From NCBI GenBank assembly GCA_030431455.1, contig JAUIJE010000003.1, positions 264,360 through 328,359 on the forward strand: DNA of 64,000 bases, given 5' to 3'. Under the pieces are notes generated by a model. That model was not told the DNA's origin, made no database searches, and worked only from the letters and a program-made list of their open reading frames with translations. Each line of letters opens with the position of its first letter. Within the stretch, counting starts at the first letter, position 1. Source of the stretch: a bacterium. Lineage in GTDB: Bacteria > Myxococcota > UBA727 > JAUIJE01. Below, in pieces: positions 43,151 through 64,000 of this stretch. The position numbers and the translations under genes were made by a program.

Positions 43151-45118
43151 ATGGCGTCCATGAGAGCAAGTGGGCTCTGGGCGGTGGTGCTCGTGTTGGT
43201 CTGGAGCGGCTGTCCCCGTGAACTGGACGGGCTGCGCTGCGACGATCAAGGCGGCTGCGCCGACGGTTACGTCTGCCTCGACGGGTTCTGCATCATTCCG
43301 GACATGCCCGGGGATGGCGACGGCGACGGAGACGGAGACGGAGACGGCCCCCCCGACGGCGGGACCGACGACGCCGGGGCGTCAGGCGACGGGGATGGGG
43401 ATGGAGACGGGGATGGTGATGGAGACGGGGACGGAGATGGAGATGGGGACGGAGATGGAGATGGGGACGGGGATGGTGATGGAGACGGGGACGGAGATGG
43501 TGATGGGGACGGAGATGGTGATGGGGACGGAGACGGGGACGGGGACTGCGCGCCGGACGTCTTTGCCGACGACATGTGCGATTGTGGTTGTGGAACCGCA
43601 GACCCTGCGTGCGGCGATGTGGGTTCAGATGCCTGCGATGTGAACCACTGTCCCGACGGGCTGGCCGCAGACTACGCGGACAACAGCCAATGCCAGGCGG
43701 CGCCCCCCCCGGAATGGACCTGCAACCCCATTTTTTACGGTCGCACCGACGGCTGCGACTGCGGGTGTGCGGTGCTCGACCCCGACTGCGAAGGAACCGG
43801 GTTCGGCGCGTGCCAGTACCATTTCTGTGTCGAGGGCGATGACGAGGACCCGAGCGGCACCGACCCCACCGACCCAACCCAATGTCTCGGGCCGGGGGTG
43901 CCCGGCTGGACCTGCAACGATGACTATTTCGGGGACGGCGATTGTGATTGCGGGTGTCACTACCCCGATCCGGACTGTCCCGCCCCGGCCAAACTGCAAG
44001 ATTGTCTTTACCAAGGGTGTGAACCCGACATGTACATGGACCTGAGCTACGTCGACCCCGACGACGTGTTGCTCTGTCTTGCCGAGGACCCGTTCTTCGC
44101 CGCGGGCTGGACCGCGCGCTGGCCCCTCGACCTCGACGTGTCCGGCCTGAGCGAACCGGTGCTCGACGTGCCCGTCGCGGTTCGGCTCGACCCCGGCCTC
44201 GTGGCCGGCTTCGACGCGGTGCGGCCGGCGGTCGACCTGCGGTTTGTGCAGGACGGGGCCGAGCTGCCCTTCGAGGTCGAGGTCGCGACCCCCACCCGCC
44301 TGTTGGTCTGGGTCCGGCTCGCCCACGCCGACCCCGGGGTCACCCAACGTTTCTTCATGTACGGGGACAACCCGGCCTTGGACACGAGCTACGACAGCTC
44401 CCCCGCGCAGGTGTGGTCCCACGGCTACGAAGCCGTGTGGCACTTCAACGACCTCGCCGACTCGGTGCACACCAACCCCGAGCTCGCGATCGACTTTGCC
44501 GGCGCCGGCGCGCTCACCGGCGACCTCGGCCTCGGCCCCGCCGTCGAGCTCGACAACACCGGCGGGGGCAACATCACCTACACCGACGGGAGCGCCCTCG
44601 ACCTGCTCGTGGGCACCGCCCACCCCGGGGTGGTCGCCCTCGCCGCCACCACCCCGGACGGGGGCCACCAAAAGATCATCGACGTCGCCCACGGGGCCAA
44701 CAGCCTCGACTCACGCTTGTCACTGCTGATCAACAACGCCGACCAAGCGGTGTGTTACCTGCGGGACGCCGCGTACAACTCCGACGCGCTGTTCTCCAAC
44801 GGCACCGTCGCCGACGGCACCCCCCGGGTGTTCGCGGCCTACAGCGATCTCACCGCCGACACCAGCTGGCTTTACGTGGACGGGGCGCTCGCCACCGACC
44901 CGCTCGACAGCGTGCTCACCGCGGGCACCACCTCGACCCAGCCCCCCTGGGGCGCGGCCATCGGCAGCGAAGAAGATCTCACCACCGCCACCTTCAACGG
45001 CGTCATCGACGAGGTCCGTCTCAGCCACGTGGCCCGGAGCGCGTCTTGGGTCTGGCTCGAGGCCCGCACCCTGCGCGGCGCCGCGGTGGTCGTCGGCGCG
45101 GTCGTCAACGCCCCGTGA
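43151..45118 (+). CDS. Lipoprotein with a (Gly-Asp)n linker, three CDCGC...DPxC Cys modules and a C-terminal DUF2341/LamG-like domain
   Basis: Lipobox (VLVWSGCP) and ~45 GD dipeptide repeats. Modules MCDCGCGTADPACGD, GCDCGCAVLDPDCEG and GDCDCGCHYPDPDCP. The C-terminal ~350 aa (VRLAHADPGV...FNGVIDEVRLSHVARSASWVWLE) fit a concanavalin/LamG-like fold. Confidence 0.65.
   Translation: MASMRASGLWAVVLVLVWSGCPRELDGLRCDDQGGCADGYVCLDGFCIIPDMPGDGDGDGDGDGDGPPDGGTDDAGASGDGDGDGDGDGDGDGDGDGDGDGDGDGDGDGDGDGDGDGDGDGDGDGDGDGDGDCAPDVFADDMCDCGCGTADPACGDVGSDACDVNHCPDGLAADYADNSQCQAAPPPEWTCNPIFYGRTDGCDCGCAVLDPDCEGTGFGACQYHFCVEGDDEDPSGTDPTDPTQCLGPGVPGWTCNDDYFGDGDCDCGCHYPDPDCPAPAKLQDCLYQGCEPDMYMDLSYVDPDDVLLCLAEDPFFAAGWTARWPLDLDVSGLSEPVLDVPVAVRLDPGLVAGFDAVRPAVDLRFVQDGAELPFEVEVATPTRLLVWVRLAHADPGVTQRFFMYGDNPALDTSYDSSPAQVWSHGYEAVWHFNDLADSVHTNPELAIDFAGAGALTGDLGLGPAVELDNTGGGNITYTDGSALDLLVGTAHPGVVALAATTPDGGHQKIIDVAHGANSLDSRLSLLINNADQAVCYLRDAAYNSDALFSNGTVADGTPRVFAAYSDLTADTSWLYVDGALATDPLDSVLTAGTTSTQPPWGAAIGSEEDLTTATFNGVIDEVRLSHVARSASWVWLEARTLRGAAVVVGAVVNAP
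43309..43546 (+). repeat. Coding hexanucleotide microsatellite (GGN-GAY)n encoding (Gly-Asp)n
   Basis: ggcgac/ggggat/ggagac units repeated more than 40 times, with a short interruption (PPDGGTDDAGAS). Confidence 0.9.
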
Positions 45119-56997: not shown

Positions 56998-58434
56998 TCA
57001 GGGGCAGTCGGGCTCGGCCGCGCCGAGGTCGAACACCGCGGCCGCGGCCCACTGGGAGGGGTCGAACGCCTCGCCGCTCGACCACACCGCCGGGTCCCGC
57101 TCGAACGTCGCCGATTGGTAGCTCGGGTGGGCCACGCTGCCGTCCGCGGTGCCGTAGGCGTCGCGCACCAGGCCGGTGTCGTCCTCGATGAACAGCCGTT
57201 CGGTGCCGAACAGCTGGGCCGGGGCGTTGTTCATCTCGAGCACGGTGTCGCACAGCGCGGCGGGGTCGGGGACGGCGGACAAAAAGCCCACCGGGTCGGT
57301 GGTGGCGATGAGGCCCCCCCCCGGGGGAATGGTCACCGCGCCCTCGACGATGGTGCTGAACGAGGTGTTGGCCCCGTCGACGATGCGAAAGATCCAGTTC
57401 TGTACGCTGATGGGCGCGTCGCCTTGGTTGACCACGCGGTAGGCGACGATGCCGGTGCCGGTGTCGGTGTGGGCGAGGTACCGCAATGTGATGGGATGGC
57501 CGCCGCCGGAGCAGGCCGCGCCGTCGTCAAAAATGGACGCGCCCTGGTCTTGGGCCTCGCAGGCGCTGTCGAAGGGAATGGTCCCGCCGCATCCGCACAC
57601 CGGCCCCTGCACCGCGGCGAAGCAGCCGTCGTGCTGGGCCGCGCACACCCCGTCGATGCCGCAGGTGCGCGGGGGAAACCGGCAGTACTCGTCGTCGGCG
57701 CAGCCCTCGTTGTCGGTGCACGCCACCGCGTCTCCGCAGGCGCCGTCGACGGCGTCGAACCCCGCGAGGTTGGCATCGAGCTGCGAGCCGTAGGTGCGCC
57801 CGTCGCAACCGCACACCTCTGCGCCACCGAAGGCCAAGGTGTCGTCCACCTCGTTGCAGGTGCCGTTCTCCACCGCGCAGCCGCCGACAAAGCAGAACAG
57901 CCCCACCCCGCAGCCCCCGTCGGACCCGTCGCGCAGACACTCGCTCCCGGCGGCATCGACGCAGCCGTTGCCCACCCCGAGCTGCCCGAGGGTGGCATCG
58001 CAGCGTTGGCCGGGCGCACATTGGAACGCGGGGTTCACGTCGTACAGGCACTCGCCAGTGTCACTGCACACCGCGGTGTGACACCCGAGGTCGGGACAGT
58101 CGCAGGGCGCACAGCCGTCGTCGTCACGGTCCGGGGCCTTGGGGTCACAAAATTGGGTGTCGCCGCACAGGCCGGCCACCGCCTCCTCGACGACGCAGTC
58201 GCCGTTGGGGTCACAAAAGCCCGTGGCCATGCAAGCGAACGGGCAATCGCCGTCGCACGCCCCGTTGTCCGGGAGCTCGTCGACGCAAAAGCCCGCCCCG
58301 AGGTCACACCGGGGGGTCACAAACGGGCAATCGTCGTCGGTGACACAGTCGAACTCCGCCTGCAGAATGTTGACGCACCCGGGCAAACCCGTCGTCACCA
58401 AAAGCCCCATCACCACCAGCCGCCACCGATTCAT
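56998..58434 (-). CDS. Cys-rich lipoprotein with a Kazal-like motif and a C-terminal lamin-tail-like domain
   Basis: Lipobox (LVTTGLPGC), about 60 Cys, and CGCDGRTYGSQ resembling the Kazal core (CGSDGxTY). The C-terminal ~130 aa (GIVAYRVVNQGDAPISVQNWIFRIVDG...) are LTD-like. Confidence 0.6.
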   Translation of the reverse strand: MNRWRLVVMGLLVTTGLPGCVNILQAEFDCVTDDDCPFVTPRCDLGAGFCVDELPDNGACDGDCPFACMATGFCDPNGDCVVEEAVAGLCGDTQFCDPKAPDRDDDGCAPCDCPDLGCHTAVCSDTGECLYDVNPAFQCAPGQRCDATLGQLGVGNGCVDAAGSECLRDGSDGGCGVGLFCFVGGCAVENGTCNEVDDTLAFGGAEVCGCDGRTYGSQLDANLAGFDAVDGACGDAVACTDNEGCADDEYCRFPPRTCGIDGVCAAQHDGCFAAVQGPVCGCGGTIPFDSACEAQDQGASIFDDGAACSGGGHPITLRYLAHTDTGTGIVAYRVVNQGDAPISVQNWIFRIVDGANTSFSTIVEGAVTIPPGGGLIATTDPVGFLSAVPDPAALCDTVLEMNNAPAQLFGTERLFIEDDTGLVRDAYGTADGSVAHPSYQSATFERDPAVWSSGEAFDPSQWAAAAVFDLGAAEPDCP

Positions 58435-58436
58435 GC

Positions 58437-59354
58437 CTATTCACCCATCACGAAGGAAAGGCCCACCAGGCCACCGCCCACGGCCAACCCCCCGCCCAAC
58501 AACACCACCGCCCCCGCGCCGCTCGCCATCGCGCCGATGTAAGCCACATTGGGGGGCAACAAGCGCTGCTCGACCGGACCGAGCTGGGTGTCGAACACGA
58601 ACGCCCCCAGCGCCGCTGCCCCCCCGCCGACCACGCCCACCGCCATCGCGCTGAGCCCGCTGATCAACCACACGTTCAGGCCGCCCCCCCCGCCGGCCGC
58701 GGCCGAGGCGAAGCGCGGGGACGAAGACGAGGGCGGCAACGCCGCGCCCTCGGGCAGCAGCGGGCCGACCAAACGATCGATGCTCGGCTCGACCTCGTGG
58801 GCGAGGTCCTCGATGCGTTCGGTGCGGAGGTCCTCGCGGCCCACCGAGCGGCCGGCCTCCGCGTCGTACAGGTTGAGCTGGACGATGTAGATCGAGCCCA
58901 GACGACCCACTTGGCCAAAGATCACAAAGTCCGCGCCCATCGCCCCGGCGACCTCGGCCAAGCAGCTCGACTCTTCGCAGCCCACCGCCTGGCGTTGGCC
59001 CTCGAGCTCGACCAACCGGGCGATGTCGGCGGCGGTCATCACGTTGAGCTGCGGGTGGCGCGAGAGCGCGTCCGCGACGAGGCCCTCGACCAGCTTGGCC
59101 GGTCCCGATTCGACGTCGATGGCGGTGAGGTTCATCACCAACACCTGGTGGGTCTCGACGGGGGGGGCCGGATCGGGGCCCGCCTCCTCGGCGGGGACCG
59201 GGTCCGCCGCGGGCGCGCGCTCGTCGTCGTCGGGCGCGGCGGGGGTCCCTTCGTCCGCGGCCGCCGCGGGCTCGGCCGCCTCGGTGGCCCCCGCGGGCGC
59301 GTCATCGACCCAGCCCGCGCTCAACAACAGCGCGGCGCACATTGCCCAGCTCAT
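58437..59354 (-). CDS. Hypothetical secreted protein or lipoprotein with a C-terminal Gly/Ala-rich membrane anchor
   Basis: Start MSWAMCAALLLSAGW, an acidic Pro/Ala-rich region, a globular middle (LVELEGQRQAVGCEESSCLAEVAGAMGADFVIFGQVGRLGSIYIVQLNLYD), and a C-terminal GGGAAALGAFVF...GGGLVGLSFVMGE hydrophobic helix. Its stop abuts the downstream gene start. Confidence 0.5.
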   Translation of the reverse strand: MSWAMCAALLLSAGWVDDAPAGATEAAEPAAAADEGTPAAPDDDERAPAADPVPAEEAGPDPAPPVETHQVLVMNLTAIDVESGPAKLVEGLVADALSRHPQLNVMTAADIARLVELEGQRQAVGCEESSCLAEVAGAMGADFVIFGQVGRLGSIYIVQLNLYDAEAGRSVGREDLRTERIEDLAHEVEPSIDRLVGPLLPEGAALPPSSSSPRFASAAAGGGGGLNVWLISGLSAMAVGVVGGGAAALGAFVFDTQLGPVEQRLLPPNVAYIGAMASGAGAVVLLGGGLAVGGGLVGLSFVMGE

Positions 59355-59499
59355 CCAGCCTCCCGGGCCAAAACCTACCACGCGCGTCGAGCACCGCACG
59401 ATTTTGACCCCTTTGCGCCGCGGTGGTTCACGCCGTGCCATTTCCGCAGGGCCGATCCCGCGCGCGCCCGCGTTTCGCCCCACACGAGGAGGAGCGCGG

Positions 59500-60846
59500 A
59501 TGATGCGGGCACAGTGGGTTTTGGTGGCGGTGGTCGTGGCGGTGGCGCCGGTCGTCGGGTGCGCGGGCGCGGCCGCGGGCAACGGCGACGGCGACGGGGA
59601 TGGCGACGGAGACTGGCCGCCTGACGGCGGCTTGGAAGAACCGTCGGACGGCGGAGCCGCCGACTCCGGTTCTTCAGGCGACGGCGACGGCGATGGCGAT
59701 GGCGATGGCGATGGCGACGGAGACGGAAGCTGCGCGGGCCGGTGCGGGGCGCCGTTCGATGACGCCGCCCTGTGTCAGTGCAACCCCGGTTGCGCCGGCT
59801 TTGGCGACTGTTGCGATGACCACGCGGCGCTGTGTGGCGGCGGAGACTGGCCGCCTGACGGCGGCTTGGAAGAACCGTCGGACGGCGGAGCCGCCGACTC
59901 CGGTTCTTCAGGCGACGGGGACGGGGACGGCGACACCAGCTGTGCGGGCCGGTGCGGGGACAGCTACGATCCGGCCCTCGCGTGCCAATGCAACCCCGCC
60001 TGCGCCGACTTCGGCAACTGCTGCGACGACTATGCGCCGCTGTGCACAGATTCGACCGCGTCCTGTGCCGGCCGGTGCGGGGACAGCTACGATCCGGCCC
60101 TCGCCTGCCAATGCAACCCCGCCTGCGCCGACTTCGGAAACTGCTGCGATGACTACGACACCCAGTGCACGGCGCCGGGGCCCGAATGCGGGGCGCCCTT
60201 GCTGGTCCAGGGCCAGGTCCACACCAGCATCGCGGACCTGGCCGTGAGCAACGGCGCCCTGTCCGGCTACGACGTGGTGCACAAGATCGACATCGACCCG
60301 GTGGAGGACGGCTGCGTGGGCGAGGTCAGGCTCGCGGTGCAGTTTCATCCCCAGGGGTGCTTGCTCAGTCTGGACTTTTTTGTGGACAGCGGCGGCAACG
60401 GCTACCTCGACGACATCTTCCTCGACGCGGACAGCTTCTGCCCCGGCTTCCTAGACGCCCAAGAGGGCACGTACCATTTGGCCTACGAAGGCAACTACGG
60501 CAACGGTTTTGCCCGCCAGGTCGCGCTGTGGCCGACGGGGCTGCCCGCGACGGTGCCCGACGCGCAGGCCGACGCGTCCTGCCTCGCGGACGTGGTGGTG
60601 GGTTTTCCCGACCTGGACCTGCCCTTGGCGCGCGACGCCAGCGACGCCATCTTGTGGACCAACCTGCACGACCTCACCTTGTCCGGCGGGCTTGTCACCG
60701 AAGGGGACCAAAGCGCCCACTGCCGCCAAGCCACCGCGTGTCCGGCCGGGACCGTCGACGGGGGCCAGGCGATGTGCTTCTCCCCGCCCTACTGCGACAG
60801 CGGGTTTGTGTACGACTACGCGACCGCGACCTGCGGGCCGAGCTGA
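59500..60846 (+). CDS. Lipoprotein with (Gly-Asp)n linkers, three tandem somatomedin-B-like domains and a C-terminal domain of unknown function
   Basis: AGGAGG RBS 8 nt upstream and a lipobox (VVGCAG). Three copies of C-x-GRCG-x8-10-CQCNP-x-C-x2-FG-x-CCDDY-x3-C, which is the 8-Cys somatomedin-B pattern. Confidence 0.7.
   Translation: MMRAQWVLVAVVVAVAPVVGCAGAAAGNGDGDGDGDGDWPPDGGLEEPSDGGAADSGSSGDGDGDGDGDGDGDGDGSCAGRCGAPFDDAALCQCNPGCAGFGDCCDDHAALCGGGDWPPDGGLEEPSDGGAADSGSSGDGDGDGDTSCAGRCGDSYDPALACQCNPACADFGNCCDDYAPLCTDSTASCAGRCGDSYDPALACQCNPACADFGNCCDDYDTQCTAPGPECGAPLLVQGQVHTSIADLAVSNGALSGYDVVHKIDIDPVEDGCVGEVRLAVQFHPQGCLLSLDFFVDSGGNGYLDDIFLDADSFCPGFLDAQEGTYHLAYEGNYGNGFARQVALWPTGLPATVPDAQADASCLADVVVGFPDLDLPLARDASDAILWTNLHDLTLSGGLVTEGDQSAHCRQATACPAGTVDGGQAMCFSPPYCDSGFVYDYATATCGPS
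59608..59685 (+). repeat. Perfect 78-bp direct repeat inside the CDS, copy 1 (copy 2 at 59843-59920), encoding DWPPDGGLEEPSDGGAADSGSSGDG
   Basis: ggagactggccgcctgacggcggcttggaagaaccgtcggacggcggagccgccgactccggttcttcaggcgacgg occurs twice, 235 bp apart, each followed by GD repeats and an SMB module. Confidence 0.85.
59940..60165 (+). repeat. Near-identical ~105-bp tandem duplication encoding SMB-like domains 2 and 3
   Basis: The DNA encoding CAGRCGDSYDPALACQCNPACADFGNCCDDY is repeated with only a few substitutions. Confidence 0.8.
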
Positions 60847-63197: not shown

Positions 63198-64000
63198 TCA
63201 CAAACAGATGCAGTCACCGCCGATGCACTTGCCCCCGTAGGTGCCGCACTGCTGGTTGCAGGTCGACAACGTACAGTCCCCACTGGGCGGGGGCGGCGGC
63301 GGCGGTGGCGGCGAGAACACCAACGACACCCCCAGGGCCTCGTCGACGTACTGGACCGCCGAGAACACGTCCCGGTTTTTGAACCACGCCCACTGGTAAC
63401 CGGAGTGCACCCCAAACAGTTTGCTCCCGGCAAACCACGGCCCCCCGCTGTCCCCGGGATCGGCGTACTCGTTCTTCATGCTCACCAACCGGTGGTATCC
63501 CTGGGACGACGTGTTCGTCTTCCGCACTTCGTCGCAGCGCTTTCCGGTGGTCTTGCCCAACCGGCACAATGTCATTCCTTCCACCGCGAACCCGAGACTG
63601 CTGGCCGGCCGGGTGTGGTTGACATTGTCGTAGAAGTCGCTGGACAGCGTGTTGCCGTTGTTGGTGTGCCACTGGAGGTCGCCCCACATGCCCTTGTGTT
63701 CCGCCTTGAACGTCGCGTGGCCCCCTTCCCCGCCGGCCCAGTTCTGCTGCCACTCGGTGCTGTTGGGGCAATGCCCGGCGGTGAGGTAGCCCTGGCTGGC
63801 CCCCTTCTTCACCATGAACGCGGCGGTGCAGGCGAGCATCTTCCCGCCCCCGTAGAGCGCCTCGCGACCGGCGGGAAGCTCTTGTGTCAAAGCCACCCGC
63901 ACGTTGTCCCCGAGCGCGGGCACCGTGCGCAAAAGCTCGTCCCGCGGCACCCGGCGCCCCGCCTTGCTTGGCACCATTTCGACCTCGACGTCGCCGGTCT
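63198..64000 (-). CDS. S1E (streptogrisin/alpha-lytic protease) family serine protease with a C-terminal Pro9 linker and small Cys-rich domain; 5' end outside the window (partial)
   Basis: The mature-domain start LYGGGKMLACTAAFMV...YLTAGHC fits the streptogrisin pattern (GG...C..GF.V...Y.LTAGHC), and GDSGGPWF is the catalytic Ser motif. Only ~37 aa lie upstream of the mature domain in-window, so the signal and pro-region are beyond the edge. C-terminal PPPPPPPPP then GDCTLSTCNQQCGTYGGKCIGGDCICL. Confidence 0.8.
   Translation of the reverse strand, partial: TGDVEVEMVPSKAGRRVPRDELLRTVPALGDNVRVALTQELPAGREALYGGGKMLACTAAFMVKKGASQGYLTAGHCPNSTEWQQNWAGGEGGHATFKAEHKGMWGDLQWHTNNGNTLSSDFYDNVNHTRPASSLGFAVEGMTLCRLGKTTGKRCDEVRKTNTSSQGYHRLVSMKNEYADPGDSGGPWFAGSKLFGVHSGYQWAWFKNRDVFSAVQYVDEALGVSLVFSPPPPPPPPPSGDCTLSTCNQQCGTYGGKCIGGDCICL

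Follow-up and report, generated by a model that had tools for sequence, protein, structure and literature searches.

Somatomedin-B (SMB) is a textbook module of the animal extracellular matrix and of ectoenzymes, carried by vitronectin, autotaxin/ENPP and ENDOU. The gene at 59500-60846 of a 64-kb stretch of DNA from a Myxococcota genome (contig JAUIJE010000003.1; the whole stretch that was analysed, 64,000 nucleotides long, is called the window) encodes a putative lipoprotein in which three stretches resemble this module and are followed by a domain of another kind. It raises the question of whether these stretches are true SMB domains, how they came to be repeated within one gene, and what they may do on a bacterial protein. 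By sequence and by predicted fold, the three modules are true SMB domains, homologous to eukaryotic somatomedin-B. On balance, we favour the reading that the product is a modular binding protein of the cell surface or periplasm, an acidic, disulfide-rich lipoprotein that arose by domain shuffling and intragenic duplication. The gene is laid out as follows.

59487..59492, plus strand: Shine-Dalgarno AGGAGG within GAGGAGGAG, 7 nucleotides (nt) 5' of the ATG, from reading the sequence
59500..60846, plus strand: coding sequence, 448 amino acids (aa) plus stop codon, from the open reading frame (ORF) and its translation; GC at the three codon positions 0.69/0.55/0.86
59500..59562, plus strand: predicted signal peptide MMRAQWVLVAVVVAVAPVVGC with lipobox V-V-G-C, by the lipobox rule [LVI][ASTVI][GAS]C
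59563..59730, plus strand: acidic tether 1, aa 22-77, (Gly-Asp)n flanking WPPDGGLEEPSDGGAADSGSS; holds (GGCGAC)n hexamer arrays
59607..59684, plus strand: perfect 78-nt direct repeat, copy A (linker)
59731..59835, plus strand: SMB module 1 (SMB1), aa 78-112, CAGRCGAPFDDAALCQCNPGCAGFGDCCDDHAALC, Pfam PF01033
59836..59940, plus strand: acidic tether 2, aa 113-147, duplicating the core of tether 1
59841..59918, plus strand: perfect 78-nt direct repeat, copy B, offset 234
59941..60045, plus strand: SMB module 2 (SMB2), aa 148-182, Pfam PF01033; AlphaFold2 mean predicted local distance difference test score (pLDDT) 91.1
60064..60168, plus strand: SMB module 3 (SMB3), aa 189-223, tandem duplicate of SMB2 with a 123-nt period
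60172..60843, plus strand: C-terminal 224-aa domain, an all-beta core and then a Cys-rich hairpin tail, 10 Cys

An earlier note, made from the letters alone, had called the modules SMB and proposed a search with PF01033. That search matched Pfam Somatomedin_B over three stretches (E=6.6e-31, 106.8 bits against a gathering cut-off of 23.1), and the assignment was borne out. No other Pfam family was found at E<=1 over the 448-aa protein, and NCBIfam gave no meaningful match. The spacing C-x3-C-x9-C-x-C-x3-C-x5-CC-x6-C, counted from a first Cys at aa 78, 148 and 189, is kept in all three modules, and none of the eight Cys columns varies when they are aligned with animal and bacterial modules. The consensus written down earlier fits the modules, except that module 1 has CCDDH and not CCDDY. 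Positions other than Cys are also held in common with animal modules (RCG..YDPAL.CQCN..C....NCCDDY against sea-urchin ENDOU, CKDRCGIGYDPALTCQCNDECESYSNCCDDYNEQC; 60-63% identical). When the SMB region was compared with the sequences of solved structures, 38 of 38 matches were SMB-bearing; the best was human ENDOU (9ftw, 2.1e-16), followed by ENPP2/3/1 and vitronectin. An AlphaFold2 model of SMB2, built from an alignment of 25 modules, was then compared with solved structures by Foldseek. It superposed on the vitronectin SMB domain 1oc0_B with a root-mean-square deviation (rmsd) of 0.9 Å (template-modelling (TM) score 0.83/0.90, probability 1.00), on vitronectin 3bt1_B at 1.0 Å and ENPP1 4b56 at 1.3 Å (both probability 1.00), and on autotaxin SMB domains too; the fold is a prediction, and the training of AlphaFold2 included the SMB structures compared. 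The predicted fold thus lies 0.9-1.3 Å from solved SMB domains.

The modules thus have the same 8-Cys framework, Pfam family and predicted fold as the SMB domains of vitronectin, ENPP1/2/3 and ENDOU (placental protein 11). Identity to solved eukaryotic SMB domains is 31-40% in structural alignments, and is highest with the sea-urchin ENDOU modules mentioned above. As in eukaryotic SMB proteins, the modules stand in tandem, N-terminal to another domain, on a secreted protein; animal EndoUs are noted to have signal peptides and disulfide-rich SmB domains, suggesting secretion (PMC11961692). Unlike the eukaryotic proteins, this one is bacterial and would be anchored through its lipobox. No phosphodiesterase, nuclease-like or XendoU domain follows its SMB modules (Pfam, E<=1). 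Since the catalytic partner domain is missing, the protein is not of the ENPP or ENDOU type.

The start of the gene and its export signal can be read with some precision. The ribosome-binding stretch reads GAGGAGG and the ATG lies at 59500. An in-frame stretch upstream (59023-59499) has GC of 0.59/0.78/0.86 at the three codon positions, a profile unlike that of coding DNA, and shares its position with part of a divergently oriented minus-strand gene. The GC of 0.78 at second positions and this overlap indicate that the start codon is at 59500. The N-terminus MMRAQWVLVAVVVAVAPVVG, ending before the Cys at position 21 (C21), fits the lipobox rule within the first 15-35 residues, with Arg in the n-region, a hydrophobic core of 14 residues and Ala at +2. 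The strong AGGAGG and the lipobox pointed out earlier were both confirmed, the former 7 nt before the ATG and the latter as VVG before C21. Cys21 is the predicted lipidation site. We infer that the protein would be exported by Sec and lipidated at this residue, and by the known sorting rules Ala at +2 would probably place it in the outer membrane or at the cell surface. From there the chain runs as a 56-aa acidic tether, SMB1, a 35-aa tether copy, SMB2, 6 aa, SMB3 and the beta domain. The mature protein has an isoelectric point (pI) of 4.05 and 35 Cys, that is, the lipid Cys and 34 others, enough for 17 disulfides. A pI of 4.05 together with 34 non-lipid Cys fits only an oxidising, extracytoplasmic location.

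The Gly-Asp runs of the tethers are encoded by three (GGCGAC)n hexamer arrays. By sequence comparison, a tether of the form (GD)n-PPDGG-acidic-(GD)n is typical of the lineage. Tethers very similar to those of the target were seen in a second lipoprotein of the window (43247-45118, plus strand) and in a protein of another genome, P0007. The second lipoprotein has a lipobox ...LVWSGC, a 54-aa (Gly-Asp)27 run at 43385-43546 and the tether GDGDGDGPPDGGTDDAGASGDGDGD, and continues into three 'WTCN..YG..DGCDCGCG..DPDC' Cys motifs and a LamG-like domain. Two relatives of the target's C-terminal domain, P0008 and P0012, end in this Cys motif as well.

How the modules multiplied was examined from the repeats. 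Four exact repeats of at least 30 nt are present in the 64-kb window, and three of them lie within the SMB gene. The perfect 78-bp repeat described in the earlier note is real, with coordinates 1-2 nt off those given there (59607-59684 and 59841-59918). Tandem Repeats Finder reported 59940-60170 with a period of 123, 1.9 copies and 91% matches. The DNA of SMB2 and SMB3 is identical at 97 of 108 nt (90%), so that these modules are similar but not, as had been claimed, near-identical. By Nei-Gojobori estimates of synonymous (dS) and nonsynonymous (dN) divergence, the first 31 codons of SMB2 and SMB3 differ with a dS of 0.33 and a dN of 0 (5 synonymous differences over 18.7 synonymous sites), and the last codons differ as a block (APL against DTQ). 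For SMB1 against SMB2, dS is 0.77 and dN 0.26, with 72% identity of DNA; for SMB1 against SMB3, dS is 1.24 and dN 0.30. A dS of about 0.33 with a dN of 0 indicates that SMB2 and SMB3 are an older duplication under purifying selection. Therefore, the proposal that these two modules were duplicated very recently does not hold.

The linker tells a different story. Its core shows 0 differences over 78 nt, which would have a chance of about 0.01 at the divergence of the SMB2/3 core (5.4%). Since the identical linkers stand beside SMB1 and SMB2, which are only 72% identical, the linker copy is a separate event, either a recent duplication or a gene conversion. For the same reason, a single duplication of a linker-plus-SMB unit was considered and rejected. 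The claim that the locus is actively expanding can thus be argued only for the 78-nt linker copy, for which gene conversion is equally possible, and not for SMB2/3. In a neighbour-joining tree of 34 alignment columns, SMB2 and SMB3 were sisters in 89 of 100 bootstraps and all three modules were monophyletic in 33 of 100; the relationship of bacterial to eukaryotic modules was not resolved. An alignment of this length is too short, and the tree leaves the choice between horizontal transfer and descent undecided. The order of events may have been that SMB1 split from the SMB2/3 lineage long ago, that the SMB2-SMB3 duplication was intermediate in age with both copies kept under purifying selection, and that the 78-nt linker was either copied very recently or made uniform by gene conversion.

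The C-terminal 224 aa are matched by no model of Pfam or NCBIfam, and NCBIfam matched none of 42 family members. However, a phmmer search of 1.84 billion representatives gave 130 relatives at E<=1e-3 (5 at E<=1e-30), the closest of which, P0008, has 48% identity (6.8e-50). Among ten relatives that were looked up, the only names on record are "hypothetical protein", in one case with the organism Myxococcales bacterium. Members of this family (P0008-P0137, e.g. MGC4120315.1, 'hypothetical protein QM765_38180 [Myxococcales bacterium]') align with the target domain from end to end at 28-48% identity, and the Cys pattern and the near-invariant motifs HKxDxDxxEDGC and ADSFCPGFxDxxEGxY are common to both. 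In an alignment of 42 sequences (A1), D40, C48, C63, C90 and G172 are invariant, and H37, D42, A86, D87, S88, D95, E98, G99, Y101, C137 and C184 are near-invariant. The AlphaFold2 model of the domain is all-beta with 15 strands (pLDDT 94.1, predicted TM score 0.90). No significant match of this model was found by Foldseek in the PDB (best E=0.1, TM at most 0.25; the weak top neighbours are lipocalin, streptavidin and AChBP-type beta proteins), and none in BFVD. The family profile matched no PDB sequence at E<=10, a word-indexed homology search with the domain returned nothing, and a metagenome scan with the single domain gave no relative. With a 5-sequence alignment the metagenome scan gave 9 distant loci (30-43% identity), none with SMB. 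The domain defines a sizeable, uncurated lipoprotein family whose fold is predicted with confidence.

Where the domain stands in the chain differs between the target and its family. Among 113 full-length relatives it starts at residue 57 in the median, and within the first 150 residues in 100; a lipobox-like N-terminus was found in 72 of the 113 by a relaxed pattern and in 23 by the strict [LVI][ASTVI][GAS]C. In the relatives it normally stands behind the lipobox, before propellers or repeats. In the target, by contrast, it begins at about residue 230, C-terminal to the tethers and three SMB modules. Some relatives consist of lipobox, linker and domain alone (e.g. P0009, P0011, P0025), and others extend into Kelch or RCC1 propellers, DUF4215, Ig-like domains or Cys-rich repeats. 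An SMB motif was found in none of the 130 relatives, and the beta domain in none of the SMB loci of the genome scan described below. In P0019, P0026 and P0030, the Cys hairpin 'C..G(F/Y)HDGG.G.C' that forms the C-terminal end of the target occurs in many tandem copies; Pfam has no model of this hairpin, apparently an uncurated repeat rich in Cys.

SMB domains occur in other bacteria as well. The scan covered 185,579 GTDB species genomes with the back-translated patterns CQCN[PSA][AGE]C[AV][DGN] and FG[ND]CC[DEA]D[YIH][ACD], and these narrow patterns yielded at least 23 confirmed SMB loci, all in metagenome-assembled genomes (MAGs); this number is a lower bound, as divergent modules, e.g. of the C[YW]CD type, are missed. 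Most of the loci belong to Myxococcota (Myxococcales, Nannocystaceae, Polyangiaceae and "Deltaproteobacteria"), and the remainder to two Cryomorphaceae, one Phycisphaeraceae, one Thermodesulfobacteriota and a few bins of unclear label. Pfam confirmed SMB in 16 of the 17 host ORFs tested. The rarity of SMB in bacteria, as the earlier note put it, is upheld by these numbers, but precedents exist and are tagged PF01033 in public databases. A search of the literature, within one searchable library, found no paper on bacterial SMB domains.

In the other MAG proteins, most of them from Myxococcota, 1-6 SMB modules are present, often in tandem and with acidic Gly/Asp-rich linkers, and these proteins look secreted or lipoprotein-like; named examples are P0002 ('MAG: hypothetical protein H6698_06965 [Myxococcales bacterium]'), P0004/L001, L005 and L006/L016. 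Their modules reach 69% identity to those of the target. Many have a ninth Cys (CC-x-D-[IV]-C-x2-C), whereas the target modules are of the canonical 8-Cys CCDDY type. A MYXO-CTERM-like tail ends several of the hosts, judged by eye. The domains that accompany SMB are listed by locus.

L006, L016: SMB with PAD_porph, fn3 and a type IX secretion tail
L007: SMB with Subtilase S8
L023: SMB with Kazal and antistasin
L021: SMB with Spondin_N
L010: SMB with LTD, TSP3, LamG and DUF4215
P0005: Astacin/matrixin with 4 SMB modules on G/D/N linkers
P0006: SMB with Endonuclease_1

Several of these loci are of interest in themselves. L006 (2604-5162) and L016 (5806-8310), from Cryomorphaceae MAGs, place SMB N-terminal to a Porphyromonas-type peptidyl-arginine deiminase, a plainly bacterial architecture outside Myxococcota. 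L021 (5746-6846; MAG-89, JAHDIH010000001.1, 49% GC) joins two SMB modules to Spondin_N (PF06468, 9.5e-41), another animal extracellular-matrix domain. L005 (5254-6426; Nannocystaceae MAG CAYXVR010000001.1) has three tandem SMB modules with 87.5-95% DNA identity over 144 nt and, judged by this identity, is an independent recent tandem SMB expansion in another Myxococcota genome. The ninth Cys takes the place of the conserved Tyr (CC-x-D-[IVRA]-C-x2-C) in many bacterial modules (L001, L005, L017, L018, L022), a pattern that suggests a variant set of disulfides. L010 and L012 come from a bin (CAZPHC01) labelled 'uncultured Enterobacteriaceae', with 69-72% GC and, in L010, Myxococcota-typical proteins; the label looks wrong.

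The gene belongs to its surroundings by composition. The window has 69.6% GC; GC at third codon positions (GC3) is 0.86 in the target gene, and 0.84 in the SMB modules against 0.83-0.93 in the genes of the window. The host-like GC3 of the modules argues against a recent transfer from a eukaryote and against contamination. The gene is genuinely chromosomal and comes from a Myxococcota-like bacterium of high GC. Around it lie ordinary chromosomal genes, among them those for aspartokinase-homoserine dehydrogenase, a CNNM/CorC transporter, an SBP_bac_5 solute-binding protein, a UbiA/HAD protein, a short-chain dehydrogenase and a NUDIX hydrolase, and many for secreted proteins (S8, S15 and S1 proteases; FG-GAP and LamG proteins). 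The upstream neighbour, on the opposite strand, encodes a DUF3280-like protein, and the gene that follows 40 nt downstream encodes a membrane protein of 605 aa; neither has an obvious functional link to the SMB gene. No sigma-70-like promoter and no intrinsic terminator were detected near the gene, and neither a paralog of the C-terminal domain nor a homolog of P0007 was found elsewhere in the window.

Two other Cys-rich proteins of the window were noted. The gene at 63198-63977 (minus strand) encodes a trypsin-like S1 protease (PF00089, 6.9e-5) with a poly-Pro linker and a terminal 6-Cys module, CTLSTCNQQCGTYGGKCIGGDCICL. The module has 32 weak PDB sequence matches, every one of them a scorpion K+-channel toxin with the CS-alpha/beta fold, the best being alpha-KTx 15.8 (6ay8, E=0.02); it looks like a toxin- or defensin-like knot fused to a bacterial protease. 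The gene at 56998-58434 (minus strand) encodes a 478-aa Cys-rich lipoprotein (lipobox LPGC) without a Pfam match, in which a stretch CGCDGRTYGS... is Kazal-like, judged by eye.

What, then, would such a protein do? Since the relatives have their beta domain at the lipobox and SMB behaves as an add-on in bacteria, a stalk-and-head surface protein is the best reading. The stalk would be a flexible (Gly-Asp)n tether with one SMB knot, followed by a second copy of the tether with the tandem SMB pair, and the chain would end in the 224-aa all-beta head, which in the relatives sits directly behind the lipobox without SMB. We infer that the SMB modules are small, protease-resistant protein-binding or spacer modules, which may hold the beta domain off the membrane, add a binding surface, or both. 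By analogy, an accessory role would match the use of SMB on secreted enzymes and inhibitors in other bacteria, and the strict conservation of SMB2/3 appears to favour a specific binding role over that of a pure spacer. The combination of three SMB modules with the beta domain appears so far to be unique and looks like ordinary domain shuffling in an SMB-using lineage. Several points weigh against the stalk-and-head reading. No gene neighbourhood is conserved with any related locus, and no ortholog of the whole protein was found in exact-sequence look-ups, the genome pattern scan or the metagenome scans. Look-up of the exact sequence from either start codon found nothing on record, and that of a neighbouring gene was likewise empty; a word-indexed search with the whole protein (8000 candidates scored, Gly-Asp low-complexity words dominant) gave 7 matches, and one with SMB2-3 only 2 short matches. 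The residues of vitronectin that contact PAI-1 and uPAR, which we take to be F13, D22, L24, Y27, Y28 and D34, correspond in a manual alignment on the Cys frame to Y, N, A, D, F and D in SMB2/3; as they are only partly kept, the vertebrate set of ligands cannot be transferred. In addition, H37, D40, D42, D87, S88, D95, E98 and Y101 of the beta domain could form a catalytic or metal site, which would make the SMB modules the targeting part of an enzyme.

This last possibility, in which the C-terminal domain is a working enzyme or a metal- or ligand-binding part and SMB directs it to a substrate or surface, we regard as unlikely but worth keeping in mind. Eukaryotic ENPP and ENDOU have their SMB modules ahead of a catalytic domain; enzymes are frequent among the bacterial proteins that carry SMB (arginine deiminase, subtilase, astacin, endonuclease I); alignment A1 shows two polar clusters (H37, D40, D42 and D46 with C48; D87, S88, D95, E98, G99 and Y101); and the presence of the domain alone behind a lipobox in P0009, P0011 and P0025 indicates that it functions on its own. 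However, Pfam, NCBIfam, the PDB profile search and Foldseek against the PDB matched it to no enzyme family, and in the relatives beta-propellers (Kelch, RCC1) and Cys-rich repeats, such as are typical of binding proteins, usually come after it. A little less likely still is that the modules are nothing but rigid, protease-resistant spacers that lengthen the stalk and have no ligand of their own. Their place inside the tether, between low-complexity (GD)n segments, would suit such a role, as would the change in module number by tandem duplication in the target and in L005 and the fact that the relatives of the beta domain manage without SMB. Yet 31 codons without an amino-acid change between SMB2 and SMB3 at a dS of about 0.33, surface positions included, are stricter than a spacer needs, and elsewhere SMB stands at the extreme N- or C-terminus (L007, L013, L023), where a spacer makes little sense. 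The perfect 78-nt repeat and the 123-nt tandem repeat are of the type that short-read assemblers can mis-join, and the top single database match of the SMB region, among the matches listed, is a sea-urchin ENDOU (P0001). It is nevertheless very improbable that the repeats are an assembly artefact, that the gene stems from eukaryotic contamination or that it was acquired from a eukaryote very recently. Both repeat offsets (234 and 123 nt) are in frame, the flanks of the perfect repeat differ (72% for SMB1 against SMB2), and SMB2 and SMB3 have 11 differing sites in a codon-aware pattern. Contamination was rejected on the host-like GC3 and on the bacterial ribosome-binding site and lipobox, in a window of 69.6% GC filled with bacterial genes; the relatives of the C-terminal domain all look bacterial too, with lipobox-type N-termini, and the two with organism names are Myxococcales. 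As for convergence, a domain as small as SMB (35 aa), made up so largely of Cys, can score too well against a profile. That the modules are convergent Cys-rich knots and not SMB homologues is nonetheless scarcely credible, and was rejected, in view of the non-Cys positions common with the sea-urchin modules, the score of 106.8 bits against 23.1 and the predicted fold within 0.9-1.3 Å of solved SMB domains.

A bolder reading is that Myxococcota are a native, diversifying reservoir of 'eukaryotic' disulfide-rich modules, either as the source of SMB or after redeploying an ancient acquisition, and that the beta domain is a new fold with a conserved His/Asp/Glu site. We consider this a long shot, kept alive by the unresolved module tree, by the host-like composition and by the lack of a PDB Foldseek match for the beta domain; the scorpion-toxin/defensin-like 6-Cys module on the serine protease of the same window may be cited alongside.

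What is new here is the combination of SMB with the beta domain, as bacterial SMB proteins are already in public data with automatic PF01033 tags. Taken together, the target gene and the 23 related loci indicate that Myxococcota and a few other phyla use SMB, duplicate it and preserve it by purifying selection, and that it is carried there on secreted enzymes, inhibitors and lipoproteins. They offer a tractable bacterial system in which the role of the SMB knot outside vertebrate biology may be studied, and sequences with which the direction of transfer from eukaryotes to bacteria or the reverse may be tested. Current understanding is not overturned by this finding; it extends the theme of eukaryote-like extracellular domains in myxobacteria.

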